From assembly GCF_055900595.2 (NCBI RefSeq), contig NZ_CM148325.1: 64,000 nt of DNA. One strand, written 5' to 3'. This document shows positions 22,689 through 45,223 of the stretch, piece by piece. The notes beneath the pieces were generated by a model, which did not search any database, had not been told where the DNA came from, and saw only the letters and a list, made by a program, of their open reading frames with translations. Position 1 is the stretch's first letter; every line of letters begins with the position of its first letter. The position numbers and the translations under genes are program-made.

Positions 22689-24188
22689 TTATCTTCTGTC
22701 CGGAAGAATCAGAGGCTGTGGTTTCAGACTGTCTGCCGGTACATTCCTGTCTCCGTTAAAAACAATAACGGGTTCATTATCTTCGTCTGTCAGCGGATTG
22801 AATGGCGGTATATTTTCAGTACGAATGCCGGTCAGCCACTGAAAAATACCTGCGAAATGACGGGCACTGATTTTTCTGCTGACGGACTGATGAGACGTGA
22901 TGTCACTGGCGGTAATAATCAGGGGAACGCTGTAGCCTCCTTGTATATGGCCATCATGATGAACAGGATTAGCACTGTCGCTGACCGACAGACCATGGTC
23001 AGAAAAGTAAAGCATGGCAAAATGACGGGAGTGCCGGCGAAGGATACCATCAAGCTGACCGAGAAAGTTATCCAGTTTACTGATGCTGGCGAGGTAACAG
23101 GCAATCTTTCGGGGATACTGCTCCAGGTAATGATTCGGCCAGGAGTTAAGTCGGTCACACGGATTCGGATGAGAGCCAATCATGTGCAGGAATATCACCT
23201 TCGGAGAGGATTTATCCGCCAGTGCACGTTCTGTTTCCTGTAACAACAACATGTCATCCGTTTTACGGGAAGCAAAGCTGCCTTTCTTGAGGAAAACGGT
23301 ATGCTCCGCATCAGAAGCAATAACAGAGATGCGTGTATCATGCTCCCCCAGTTTTCCCTGATTGGATATCCACCATGTGCTGTATCCTGCTTTTGCTGCC
23401 AGCGCCACCACGTTGTTGCCGGAGTCAGGGTTCTGCTCATAGTCATAAATCAGTGTCCGGCTCAGGGAAGGTACGGTACTGGCTGCTGCCGATGTATAGC
23501 CGTCAATAAATAAACCGGGAGCCGTATTCAGCCATGGTGTGGTTGGCACGGGATAGCCATATACCGACATATAATCCCTGCGCACACTCTCACCAGTAAC
23601 GATAACAATCGTGTCATACAACGGTGTTCCCGGCAGGATTTTCCAGTTGTCAGCCCCGTGCTGACTCAGTTGTTTATAACGCTGCATTTCACGCAATGTG
23701 TCAGTTGTTCCCACAACAATTCCTTTAACCATCCGCAACGGCCAGCTGTTTACAGAGCATAATACGAACAGCAGCAGTGCCAGCCAGTTACGGTGACCGC
23801 GGTGGTGTGTCCGCCAGAAAATCACCATGAATACCAGAATCGCGGCACTGACCAGAAAATGATAAACAGGAATCATCCCGGTAAACTCTGCAGCCTCATC
23901 AGCCGTGGTCTGCAGCAACGCGACAATAAAACTGTTGTTGATTTTACCGTACGTCATACCCGCAGGCGCATACAGTGCACAACAGAACAGAAATAACAGC
24001 GTTGTAATGGATGTGAGGGTATTTCTGTGTGCAAGGAGCAGAAGGAGAAACAGAAGCAGCACATTTCCTGTGGCATTCTTCTCAGTGTATCCGCATGCAA
24101 TTGTGGTTATCACAGAAATAACAAAAAAGAATAAAAACAATAAAATCCGGGGTGTGTCGCCCGGACAAAACAGTTTTCTGATATTCAT
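22689..24188 (-). CDS. sulfatase-family inner-membrane phosphoethanolamine transferase-like protein (paralog 1)
   Basis: 499-aa ORF with N-terminal TM helices then alkaline-phosphatase-superfamily core (GESVRRDYMSVYGY, LHMIGSHPNP, YFSDHGL). Confidence 0.7.
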   Translation of the reverse strand: MNIRKLFCPGDTPRILLFLFFFVISVITTIACGYTEKNATGNVLLLFLLLLLAHRNTLTSITTLLFLFCCALYAPAGMTYGKINNSFIVALLQTTADEAAEFTGMIPVYHFLVSAAILVFMVIFWRTHHRGHRNWLALLLFVLCSVNSWPLRMVKGIVVGTTDTLREMQRYKQLSQHGADNWKILPGTPLYDTIVIVTGESVRRDYMSVYGYPVPTTPWLNTAPGLFIDGYTSAAASTVPSLSRTLIYDYEQNPDSGNNVVALAAKAGYSTWWISNQGKLGEHDTRISVIASDAEHTVFLKKGSFASRKTDDMLLLQETERALADKSSPKVIFLHMIGSHPNPCDRLNSWPNHYLEQYPRKIACYLASISKLDNFLGQLDGILRRHSRHFAMLYFSDHGLSVSDSANPVHHDGHIQGGYSVPLIITASDITSHQSVSRKISARHFAGIFQWLTGIRTENIPPFNPLTDEDNEPVIVFNGDRNVPADSLKPQPLILPDRR

Positions 24189-24369
24189 CGGAGTATATCG
24201 ACAACATTATTATGAAGAGAACAGGATAATAAAAATCAGAAATTATCTGTAAAACAGATAACAGACAACCCTGCAGCAATAGACTGCAGGGTGTTTCTGT
24301 TTAATTGCAGAAGATATACAATTATATTAATTACAGAATATTCGTGATTATCTCTCGGGAACAGTGTTG

Positions 24370-25110
24370 TCAGAAGTTATAAGTCACACCAAGCATGATG
24401 TCATGACTTTTAACATCAACTTCTGACTTATATTTATCGCCCCACTCGTCCTTGTAACTCACACTGCTGTCACCTGCATCAAGATAGCGATAGCTGAGGT
24501 CCAGAGCGATATCCGGGGTTACGTCATAGCGGACACCCGCGCCAAGGTTCCATGCGAAGTTGTCAGCAGAGCCTGAACGTGACAACGATTCGCGACCACT
24601 GCTTCCGTACTCATAATCCCAGGTACTGATACCGGTTGTTTTCTGGTGAATTCTGGCGTAGCCAATCCCTGCAGATATCCAAGGTGTGAATGCGCTGTCA
24701 TTCCGGAAGTCATAGTACGCATTCAGCATTAGTGTGTTGACTGACACCTCATTCTTCAGGTCATCACGCCAGTAACCACCTGACCAACTGTCTTTATCTA
24801 CGTTATACTTCGAATCAGCTTTTCCACGAGCGTAAAACTCCAGTTCTGTACGAACCGGAATACTGAACTGCGGATAAAAATCATAACCAGCCGCGATACC
24901 ACCACTGAATACCGTATCATGGTCATCGCCGCCTTTATACTTTGACGTTTCTTCCTCATCTCCTGACAGGAAACGCTGGTCTGAAAGTGACACCACAGAG
25001 GTACCGGCTTTACCGGTCAGATAAAAACCGCTTTTACCTTCCTCAGCACCTGCATTTGCTGCAAATACACAGGCTGCGGCCACCACTGAAACAGCAAAAA
25101 CCTTTTTCAT
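24370..25110 (-). CDS. outer-membrane beta-barrel protein
   Basis: 246-aa ORF with signal peptide MKKVFAVSVVAAACVFAANA, alternating aromatic/hydrophobic beta-strand pattern, C-terminal YNF. Confidence 0.65.
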   Translation of the reverse strand: MKKVFAVSVVAAACVFAANAGAEEGKSGFYLTGKAGTSVVSLSDQRFLSGDEEETSKYKGGDDHDTVFSGGIAAGYDFYPQFSIPVRTELEFYARGKADSKYNVDKDSWSGGYWRDDLKNEVSVNTLMLNAYYDFRNDSAFTPWISAGIGYARIHQKTTGISTWDYEYGSSGRESLSRSGSADNFAWNLGAGVRYDVTPDIALDLSYRYLDAGDSSVSYKDEWGDKYKSEVDVKSHDIMLGVTYNF

Positions 25111-43334: not shown

Positions 43335-43795
43335 AACGAAGTCATTGTTTAATAAATTTAAACCATTATATATGAATTTTACACTCTGAACATGGTAACC
43401 GATTTAGCACTGGCGCATTAATTTGCGCGAAGGAGACCTCAAAATCCCTTATCGTGCCTTCATACTGCAGCCGGGGTCAGCTGCAGTTTCAGTGCTTTTT
43501 TTGATGCAAAAAACAGCTGTTAACCATCAAAAAAATTAATATCTTCAGACAGATTGCCTGTGATATTCCGTTTTATCCGGCACTATGAAGCACCAACGTC
43601 GGGAATTAAAGAATTCCGCCCCGGCGAGTAGTCCCCCTCACTAATATCACTCTTATCTGTAACCCCGAACGGCTTCCATAACAATATAATCCAGTACCGC
43701 ATTAAACTTTCCATCTATCGGCGTGGTTACCCGAAAATTATCTTCTGGTCGTTTTTCTTTGAAAGTAATAAAGCGGACTAAATTACCCCGGTGTC

Positions 43796-45223
43796 TCATT
43801 TAAAGCTATTTCGTAATGCTTTGTAATTAAACACGTTATGGTTTGCATCAAAAACATCTGATTTCCCCTGCCAGCGGGTAATCACCTCCTCTGGTGTTTT
43901 CGGTTGAGCCGGTCTGGTTACGCCCATCCATGCATTAATCAGATAATCATTATACGCAGTGGAAAAAACACTATTCACCGTCTGGCGATCGACATGCTCT
44001 CCCCGTGTCGGGCTGTACCAGATAAACATCGGAACATGATAAGCCTGCTGGCTGGGTTTTATTCCACCATGAAAATAAACGTGTTCTTTTGTCGGGTCAT
44101 ACTCCAGACCGTGATCTGAAAAATACATGACGGATGCCCGACGCGTTTCCAGCATGGCGAAAACCTGTCCCAACAAACTGTCGGTATAATGAATGGAATT
44201 ATCGTAGCAGACTTCTTCTGTATCCAGTGGTTTAAACACGGCTTTATCTCTGGGCCAGTTACTGCAGACTGGCTCATGGCTGCCCGTCAGATGCAGAACA
44301 ATCAGTTTCCTGCACCCCGGATTACTGTTCAGTGCTTCAGCCAGGTGCGGGAGCAGCAACTCATCATAGCCTCTGACATAAATTCTGTTTCTGGCCCGCA
44401 TGGCGATACTGGCCACAGCCGTTCCGTTCTGTCGGAAAGCGGACTGCGCACTGAGCCACCAGGTATCGAACCCTGCCTGATTCGCCATGTTGATAATATT
44501 ATCGGGGTAATGGCGAACATCATGATGCAGCACAGTATCAGCAGATAATGCCAACGGTACCGCAAGGGCGGTATAAGGTGCCCCGCTGATTGCCTGAGTG
44601 AACAGTTTCAGTCGTGATTTCTGTTTCTGAAGCTCTGGTGTGGTTGGCCGCGAGTACCCGTAAATGGACATGTTATCAGTCCTTGCTGATTCACCGATGA
44701 TCAGTACAAATTCATCAATATTATTGTCTGTAATCATCAGCTCGTAGTGAGGTATGGTATCAGCAATCGTCATTAATCTCTGATGCTCCTTTGCGGCCAG
44801 TGCAAAATAGTTCAGATTAAAGAAAGGGGTATATGTGGCAAACCGGGAAGCGACTATGTAAGGATCAACTTCATTTATTTGATACTGTTTCTTCAACGCA
44901 AACTGAAAGGAAGAATATAACGTTACTGTAATTAACAATAAAAATGTAATTACCGTGACCTTTCCCGAAGGCAATGAGGACGTTTTATTTATTGCTGAAC
45001 AGACGAACAATAAAAAGAGGATAATAAACGCAATAACATAGACGACATATATCCTGAACATTCTTATTGCTTCATCAGGATCTGTCTGTAGGATACTGAT
45101 TGCAAAACCATCATTGAATGTGGTGCCAAATGTACACCATGAATACAGGCTGATACTGATATCTGCCGCGGTCAGTAATGTGAACGGAAAGGCCAGAATC
45201 AAACGCAACGTAAGCGATTTCAT
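43796..45223 (-). CDS. sulfatase-family inner-membrane phosphoethanolamine transferase-like protein (paralog 2)
   Basis: 475-aa ORF; N-terminal TM helices; GESARTDNMSIYGY, LHLTGSHEP, YFSDHGL blocks parallel paralog 1. Confidence 0.7.
   Translation of the reverse strand: MKSLTLRLILAFPFTLLTAADISISLYSWCTFGTTFNDGFAISILQTDPDEAIRMFRIYVVYVIAFIILFLLFVCSAINKTSSLPSGKVTVITFLLLITVTLYSSFQFALKKQYQINEVDPYIVASRFATYTPFFNLNYFALAAKEHQRLMTIADTIPHYELMITDNNIDEFVLIIGESARTDNMSIYGYSRPTTPELQKQKSRLKLFTQAISGAPYTALAVPLALSADTVLHHDVRHYPDNIINMANQAGFDTWWLSAQSAFRQNGTAVASIAMRARNRIYVRGYDELLLPHLAEALNSNPGCRKLIVLHLTGSHEPVCSNWPRDKAVFKPLDTEEVCYDNSIHYTDSLLGQVFAMLETRRASVMYFSDHGLEYDPTKEHVYFHGGIKPSQQAYHVPMFIWYSPTRGEHVDRQTVNSVFSTAYNDYLINAWMGVTRPAQPKTPEEVITRWQGKSDVFDANHNVFNYKALRNSFK

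Follow-up and report, generated by a model that had tools for sequence, protein, structure and literature searches.

We present the analysis of a 64,000-nucleotide stretch of contig NZ_CM148325.1 (assembly GCF_055900595.2), hereinafter the window, which is a mosaic genomic island of avian-type E. coli associated with the tRNA gene pheU and ridden with insertion sequences (IS). This island carries two genes coding for phosphoethanolamine (PEtN) transferase-like proteins that prove to be different both in kind and in state of preservation. With high confidence we conclude that the first is an intact enzyme of the YjgX type and the second an IS-truncated remnant of the YhbX type, their chemistry, donor, acceptor and state of expression being predicted from comparison with better-known relatives. 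The elements on which this conclusion turns are the following:

22689..24188, minus strand: intact YjgX-type PEtN-transferase-like gene, 499 aa (open reading frame (ORF), Pfam, AlphaFold2 (AF2) model, alignments)
43796..45241, minus strand: 5'-truncated YhbX-like remnant, codons 73-553 (alignment to a 553-aa allele, annotation by the Prokaryotic Genome Annotation Pipeline (PGAP), DNA junction)
43796..45223, minus strand: the same gene as an ORF called from the ATG at 45223, 475 aa (ORF list)
45242..46551, plus strand: IS629/IS1203-like element of the IS3 family, 1310 bp, with terminal inverted repeats TGAACCGCCCCGGG (boundaries, repeats, comparison with O157:H7)

An initial annotation of this DNA had described the two genes as diverged homologs of the PEtN-transferase family, and this description holds for both. 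The two ORFs, of 499 and 475 aa on the minus strand, are related to each other at 27% identity over 431 columns in a BLASTP comparison (E = 6e-34). The Pfam Sulfatase domain (PF00884) is recovered with E-values of 1.6e-36 for the YjgX-type protein and 4.6e-50 for the intact allele of the YhbX-type protein, EptA_B_N (PF08019) is weakly matched in both (E = 9.6e-5 for the YjgX-type protein), and the best PDB sequence matches of both are EptC, EptA and MCR-1. Among the sequence blocks said to be conserved, GES.R.D.MS.YGY and YFSDHGL are indeed common to the two proteins, but L.GSH.P shrinks to a shared GSH. To map the active site we used a phmmer alignment to NmEptA (PDB 5fgn), an alignment of eight paralogues, an alignment of 49 YjgX-family sequences, and coordinates. 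The catalytic Thr, the His residues and the metal ligands are all present in both genes, as listed here with the 475-aa numbering for the YhbX-type remnant:

NmEptA E240 (Zn ligand): E200 in the YjgX-type protein, E178 in the YhbX-type remnant
NmEptA T280 (nucleophile): T238 in the YjgX-type protein, T218 in the YhbX-type remnant
NmEptA H383 (second-site His): H340 in the YjgX-type protein, H316 in the YhbX-type remnant
NmEptA D452 (Zn ligand): D397 in the YjgX-type protein, D370 in the YhbX-type remnant
NmEptA H453 (Zn ligand): H398 in the YjgX-type protein, H371 in the YhbX-type remnant
NmEptA H465 (second-site His): H411 in the YjgX-type protein, H385 in the YhbX-type remnant

The loss of catalytic residues, which the initial annotation had named as grounds for refutation, is therefore not seen. 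The E, the T, the H and the DH pair are invariant across the eight paralogues. Among the 49 YjgX-family sequences, which span 25-97% identity, E200, T238 and H340 are likewise invariant, and D397, H398 and H411 are retained in at least 90%. An AF2 model of the YjgX-type protein, built from the latter alignment (mean predicted local distance difference test score 88.4, predicted template-modeling score 0.80), displays an N-terminal set of five long helices and, after it, an alpha/beta domain. The top PDB matches recovered for this model by Foldseek are 6a82 (the EcEptC catalytic domain, E = 5.9e-19), 9nww (full-length MCR-1) and 5fgn (full-length NmEptA), with the full-length model aligning to the latter two over about 550 columns. 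Taken together, the Sulfatase domain, the PDB matches and the catalytic residues place both genes, as far as sequence can tell, in the EptA/EptC/OpgE/MCR superfamily of PEtN transferases.

Within this superfamily, the NCBIfam models that the two proteins match (CptA, EptA, EptB and MCR-1 to MCR-13) all score far below their curated cut-offs. For the YjgX-type and YhbX-type proteins, respectively, the scores are 38.5 and 95.5 bits against 660 for EptA model PRK11598, 56.7 and 130.2 against 561 for EptA model PRK09598, 49.6 and 106.6 against 493 for the Kdo PEtN transferase EptB (PRK11560), 106.7 and 143 against 404 for CptA (PRK10649), and 18-35 and 42-63 against 1075-1250 for the MCR models. 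Hence, neither gene is likely to be an orthologue of any named PEtN transferase, and identity with EptA, EptB, EptC/CptA or MCR at the equivalog level was rejected for both on these cut-offs. No OpgE model figures among the NCBIfam matches of the YjgX-type protein. In a neighbor-joining tree of the eight paralogues, which include EptA, EptB, EptC, OpgE and YhbX of K-12, neither gene enters the EptA, EptB or EptC clades (20-25% identity to these enzymes; 20-22% to K-12 EptA); instead, the YjgX-type protein is sister to OpgE, with 33% identity, and the YhbX-type protein groups with YhbX. The two genes accordingly represent different, already catalogued subfamilies, the YjgX type and the YhbX type, and the former is a likely paralogue, not an orthologue, of OpgE.

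EptC/CptA (the heptose-I phosphate PEtN transferase; PDB 5zzu/6a82) provides the best sequence match among solved structures (E = 1.2e-17 for the YjgX-type and 3.3e-24 for the YhbX-type protein) and has the same GES...T...GSH...SDHG active-site framework, at 20-25% identity. EptA/PmrC and MCR-1 to MCR-13, which modify lipid A, are of the same superfamily and fold as the two proteins and have the same catalytic residues, but belong to a different clade. OpgE (YbiP, class IX) resembles the YjgX-type protein in its layout of five transmembrane (TM) segments and a sulfatase-fold domain joined by a short linker (PMC3818809); however, it is encoded by a core gene, whereas its relative here is island-borne and only 33% identical. 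We also considered Lpt-O, a PEtN transferase of about 500 aa (class IV) that is encoded on a mobile element, a Shigella flexneri plasmid, and alters a surface glycan (PMC3458804). The likeness is one of functional analogy only: kinship was rejected, as the best BLASTP E-values of the plasmid product (pSFxv_2, NC_017320) to the two proteins are 0.66 and 0.80, and PGAP assigns Lpt-O to the LTA-synthase family.

The initial annotation had further ascribed the same architecture to both genes and a start codon at 45223 to the second; both claims fail on comparison with intact alleles. Such alleles in other E. coli code for proteins of 534-557 aa, and to one of 553 aa the gene in the window is 97% identical across residues 73-553. 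The alignment extends upstream past the supposed start (LLIIKA-M) up to the IS end; as homology runs through it, the ATG at 45223 corresponds to the internal Met79 of the 553-aa allele. DNA homology to the intact allele breaks exactly at 45241/45242, and what is lost comprises the first 72 codons (216 nt), coding for TM1 and most of TM2, along with the promoter region. A hydropathy scan correspondingly detects five TM segments in K-12 YhbX and just the last three, TM3-5, in the remnant. RefSeq/PGAP likewise treats the gene as a pseudogene, 'incomplete; missing N-terminus', and draws it out to the IS boundary. A blastn search with the whole intact locus recovered the missing 5' end neither beyond the IS nor elsewhere in the 64-kb window. 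In the intact locus, found in another E. coli island (locus L003), the segment L003:7983-11880 is collinear with 45241-41342 of the window at 97.6% identity, and blastn detects homology only from L003:7983 onward. On the other flank the following gene is conserved both beside the remnant and in L003, which shows that the locus has kept its 3' side intact:

42042..43334, plus strand: major facilitator superfamily (MFS) transporter, convergent downstream neighbor of the YhbX-like gene (same neighbor in the intact locus L003)

The intact allele, a member of the RefSeq cluster of WP_001087987.1, shows 65% identity and 81% positives over 511 aa to K-12 YhbX, with which the gene has motifs and TM layout in common. 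YhbX of K-12, however, is the product of a core gene next to leuU, whereas the gene in the window is an additional, island-borne copy that has lost codons 1-72. We found the truncated junction in 11 of 5426 complete genomes, mostly from poultry isolates, and the intact 5' region in 465. Ten of the 11 junctions are 100% identical and one is 99.6% identical; being so nearly identical, they make the persistence of the truncated form uninformative with regard to selection. The truncation thus appears to be recent and lineage-specific, and we posit that what survives of this island-borne YhbX paralogue is dead or crippled.

The element at the break confirms the earlier report of an IS629 copy just upstream of this gene: it is a 1310-bp element that begins 18 bp upstream of the ATG at 45223. 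Its identity of approximately 95% to O157:H7 copies that PGAP names IS1203 family shows the earlier label to be essentially right. The transposase is of the two-ORF IS3-family type with a programmed frameshift, contains an internal stop according to PGAP, and reads away from the remnant. The sequences flanking the element differ (AAG versus TAT), and this lack of a target-site duplication is better explained by a deletion or rearrangement associated with the IS than by its simple insertion upstream of the gene. We propose that the element, together with an adjacent deletion, would have stripped the gene of its promoter, its start codon, TM1 and the greater part of TM2. At its right end, the element abuts a fragment of a PemK/MazF-family toxin gene (46552..46803; annotated length 186 nt) for which no antitoxin partner is visible, and this fragment is further evidence of IS-mediated scrambling at the site.

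In contrast to the remnant, the YjgX-type gene is complete. Its product is identical to RefSeq WP_001313263.1 and is predicted to combine five N-terminal TM helices with a periplasmic sulfatase-fold domain. At the nucleotide level, it is 91.7% identical to the yjgX pseudogene locus of K-12 over nt 314-1487 (78% of the gene). The matched K-12-type pseudogene sits at leuX/KpLE2, flanked by an IS2 copy and IS4 (insG), a position that identifies it as yjgX; both it and the gene studied here are integrase-proximal in a tRNA-associated island. The K-12 copy, however, bears a frameshift and an internal stop and has lost its N-terminus, whereas the gene in the window retains all 499 codons. We hence regard the latter as the probable functional counterpart of the K-12 pseudogene.

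That the two genes lie within one island, as initially proposed, is borne out by RefSeq context and by the tRNA-Phe gene that ARAGORN detects at the start of the island:

17078..17153, plus strand: tRNA-Phe (pheU), attachment site at the island start (ARAGORN; RefSeq gene order dsbD-dicD-tRNA-Phe-integrase)
17351..18613, plus strand: island tyrosine recombinase/integrase, 420 aa (ORF; tyrosine-type recombinase in a 100%-identical RefSeq record)

The position of this tRNA gene and the RefSeq order dsbD-dicD-tRNA-Phe-recombinase together assign both PEtN-transferase-like genes to a single pheU island. RefSeq annotation of the identical record depicts it as a mosaic of cargo genes and IS fragments. 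Over the 25 kb from 21000 to 45900, the sequence matches the chromosome of the chicken E. coli strain GPEC389 at 100% identity, and 7 complete genomes contain 80% or more of this stretch.

By analogy with NmEptA and MCR-1, for which a mechanism involving Zn and a PEtN-Thr intermediate is known (PMC10525099), we infer how the YjgX-type enzyme might act. Its five-helix inner-membrane domain would present phosphatidylethanolamine to the periplasmic alkaline-phosphatase-fold domain, in which E200, D397 and H398 would bind Zn2+; T238 would then attack the donor to yield a covalent PEtN-Thr intermediate, from which PEtN would be handed to a periplasm-exposed acceptor. As regards the acceptor, OpgE decorates osmoregulated periplasmic glucans (OPGs) (PMC3818809). 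Given that OpgE is the nearest characterized relative, and that every model for enzymes acting on lipid A, Kdo or heptose falls far short of its threshold, the acceptor is more probably a glucan or another sugar than a lipid A phosphate. We propose that YjgX- and YhbX-type enzymes probably add PEtN to envelope sugars.

A narrower version of this proposal holds the YjgX-type protein to be a second OpgE, that is, an isozyme adding PEtN to OPGs. OpgE is its closest characterized relative and its sister in the neighbor-joining tree, the two are alike in motif variants and in the short linker between the TM and catalytic domains, and a genome-wide association study (GWAS) independently named such island genes 'putative opgE' (PMC8946752). 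Nevertheless, 33% identity lies well inside the range where acceptor specificity shifts in a superfamily with 11 acceptor classes (PMC10525099), core opgE already covers the function in K-12 (PMC3818809), and the neighboring genes offer no link to OPGs. We therefore consider an OpgE isozyme a possibility to be kept in view, albeit an unlikely one, and prefer the broader reading of an island-borne transferase probably directed at envelope sugars.

The immediate surroundings of the YjgX-type gene offer a further set of observations:

24226..24253, minus strand: promoter-like site TTTACA-16-TATTAT, 38 nt upstream of the ATG of the YjgX-type gene (consensus scan, 10/12 matches; pattern match only)
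24268..24292, no strand assigned: GC-rich hairpin of 10 bp lying between the YjgX-type gene and its outer-membrane protein neighbor, a possible terminator of the latter (upstream) gene with a weak T-tail (sequence scan)
24370..25110, minus strand: 246-aa outer-membrane beta-barrel protein (Opa/OmpA-TM/Adr-like), upstream neighbor of the YjgX-type gene (Pfam OMP_b-brl, PDB, NCBIfam)

The 246-aa protein matches Pfam OMP_b-brl with E = 7.6e-22 and PDB Opa60 with E = 5e-5, along with an NCBIfam Adr adhesin model below its cut-off. The hairpin and the promoter-like site (24253..24226), both situated between the two genes, suggest separate transcription units. The same pairing of an outer-membrane protein gene with a YjgX-type gene recurs in the L003 island, and comparison of the two modules (22685..25126 versus L003:12267-15967) reveals a mosaic across strains: identity reaches 96% in the 3' 1.15 kb of the transferase gene, which codes for the catalytic domain, but only 79% in its 5' third (the membrane domain) and in the outer-membrane protein gene. 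The K-12 yjgX match is likewise confined to nt 314-1487. This pattern suggests recombination breakpoints within the YjgX-type gene. Homologs from Erwinia, [Enterobacter] lignolyticus and Pantoea (37-50% identity) occur in unrelated contexts, with neither the outer-membrane protein partner nor glycan-synthesis genes, and thus give no clue to the acceptor. Membership of a defence system was rejected, as PADLOC returned no match for the YjgX-type protein, the intact YhbX-type allele or the outer-membrane protein, and the PHROGs matches of these proteins are solely to families of unknown function.

Between the island integrase and the YjgX-type gene lies a gene (19065..22580, plus strand) for a 1171-aa 'AAA domain' protein, which is a full-length match to PADLOC MkoC of the Mokosh type II anti-phage defence system (1689 bits, profile positions 1-1135 of 1136); the integrase-proximal slot is thus taken by a defence gene. 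On many conjugative plasmids of the IncI/IncK type in E. coli, such as pTA142-2 (NZ_CP028611.1; L011:5908-7443), we observed a homolog 53% identical to the YjgX-type protein. In pTA142-2, the homolog follows a thermonuclease gene in the interval from trbA to excA; the surface-exclusion gene excA itself is approximately 1.1 kb away, with a Hok/Gef gene and a small hypothetical gene in between.

By analogy with the lysogenic-conversion genes found beside phage integrases, one might view the Opa-like outer-membrane protein gene and the YjgX-type transferase as an integrase-proximal cargo module for surface remodelling, in which PEtN would be placed on the lipopolysaccharide (LPS) core, another envelope glycan or the partner protein, masking receptors for phages or conjugative pili. 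The adjacent full-length Mokosh type II gene, the homolog near excA, and the mosaic 5' part together with the outer-membrane protein gene may be compatible with such a module. We nevertheless think it improbable, and retain the broader assignment to envelope sugars.

Several points weigh against our overall reading. OpgE is just 33% identical to the YjgX-type protein, which makes it a weak guide to the acceptor. Our promoter scans are crude consensus matching, and the TM calls come from a simple hydropathy window that the AF2 model backs for the YjgX-type protein alone. In the literature we found no functional assay of YjgX or YhbX, only annotation-level mentions, uses as strain-construction markers and one negative control. 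Finally, the remnant is still an unbroken 475-codon ORF with all catalytic residues, and its odd number of TM helices (three) would leave the catalytic domain in the periplasm, such that residual function is possible.

These last features also favor the view that the YhbX-type gene works, with the IS629-like element next to it driving or modifying its expression and the ATG at 45223 giving rise to a three-TM enzyme with a shortened N-terminus. To them may be added the 97% identity to the intact allele, an AAGG 3 nt ahead of that ATG, and an allele unchanged across 11 genomes. Yet, as set out above, homology crosses this 'start codon' to reach the IS end, 72 codons have been lost along with the native promoter, PGAP calls a pseudogene, and the persistence of 11 essentially identical junctions is no sign of selection. 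The spacing of the AAGG is too short for a Shine-Dalgarno sequence. Moreover, the end of the element facing the remnant is its left, transposase-promoter end, which points away from it. In IS3-family elements such as IS2, IS3 and IS911, an outward-facing -35 is located in the right end. The consensus scan detected no sigma-70-like site on either strand of 45100-45700, including the minus strand that would serve the remnant, and the in-frame extension of the ORF into the IS contains no start codon. An IS-derived promoter was rejected on the last two grounds. The earlier suggestion that the IS may alter expression of the gene thus finds no support, as the element truncates the gene and presents no promoter-like site to what is left; we judge a working, IS-driven enzyme very unlikely, and continue to regard the gene as a dead or crippled remnant.

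That one or both genes code for EptA/MCR-like lipid A PEtN transferases raising resistance to polymyxin and cationic peptides, as their common superfamily, fold and catalytic residues and the label 'lipid A phosphoethanolamine transferase' given to homologs by some database submitters might suggest, is highly improbable in light of the EptA and MCR scores far under cut-off, the 20-22% identity to K-12 EptA, the clustering of the YjgX-type protein with a glucan-modifying enzyme, the presence of its sequence in 2913 of 5426 complete E. coli genomes though it is not known as a resistance determinant, and the report that K-12 yjgX deletion was a false positive for susceptibility to the defensin HNP-1, although the K-12 allele is itself a pseudogene (PMC4808223). 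With genes of the YjgX and YhbX types, as opposed to EptA, EptB, EptC or MCR, a role in lipid A modification or polymyxin resistance is not the default expectation.

The remainder of the island attests to its composite nature. On the minus strand, 33118..36942 codes for a 1274-aa serine-protease autotransporter of the S6 family (SPATE) with a C-terminal autotransporter barrel. Cargo linked to phosphate or organophosphate lies at 26437..28416, 42042..43334, 46974..48290 and 49785..51128, and comprises a PhoX phosphatase, a galactonate/phosphoglycerate (PgtP-like) MFS transporter, a second UgpB-like glycerol-3-phosphate binding protein and a phytase-like esterase. Further decayed mobile elements occupy 29143..32655 and 39648..41573, and include IS3-family transposase fragments and a frameshifted copy of ISEc8 (IS66 family). 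An IS3-family element lacking its C-terminus lies between imperfect inverted repeats of 50 nt each (39648-39697 and 41524-41573), and a YebF-family pseudogene with an internal stop is situated at about 39864..40217.

Both PEtN-transferase-like genes are ordinary island cargo, already annotated in RefSeq and noted in the literature (PMC6174562, PMC8946752). Of the 2913 complete E. coli genomes with sequence like the YjgX-type gene, 1450 have it near full length; its RefSeq cluster counts 8941 member sequences, and it matches 670 plasmid records in total. YjgX- or YhbX-type genes were reported at all tRNA-island sites analysed in one study (PMC6174562), and the 'putative opgE' genes of the 2022 bloodstream-infection GWAS lie beside intA/intS integrases in pap islands (PMC8946752). 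In strain 26561, we found the exact YjgX-type gene of the window within about 12 kb of the pap operon. The K-12 yjgX deletion has served solely as a negative control in the defensin screen (PMC4808223).

The significance of these findings lies in little beyond annotation hygiene. They guard against taking IS-truncated remnants for complete genes with 'IS-driven' expression, and against suspecting a colistin-resistance gene behind each PEtN transferase with a sulfatase fold. While the locus adds nothing else to tractability, its intact YjgX-type allele would be a better starting point for acceptor biochemistry than the K-12 pseudogene. The question of the acceptors of YjgX and YhbX is long-standing and general; sequence of the YjgX type, which matches more than half of complete E. 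coli genomes, recurs on IncI-type plasmids as well as beside the integrases of tRNA islands.

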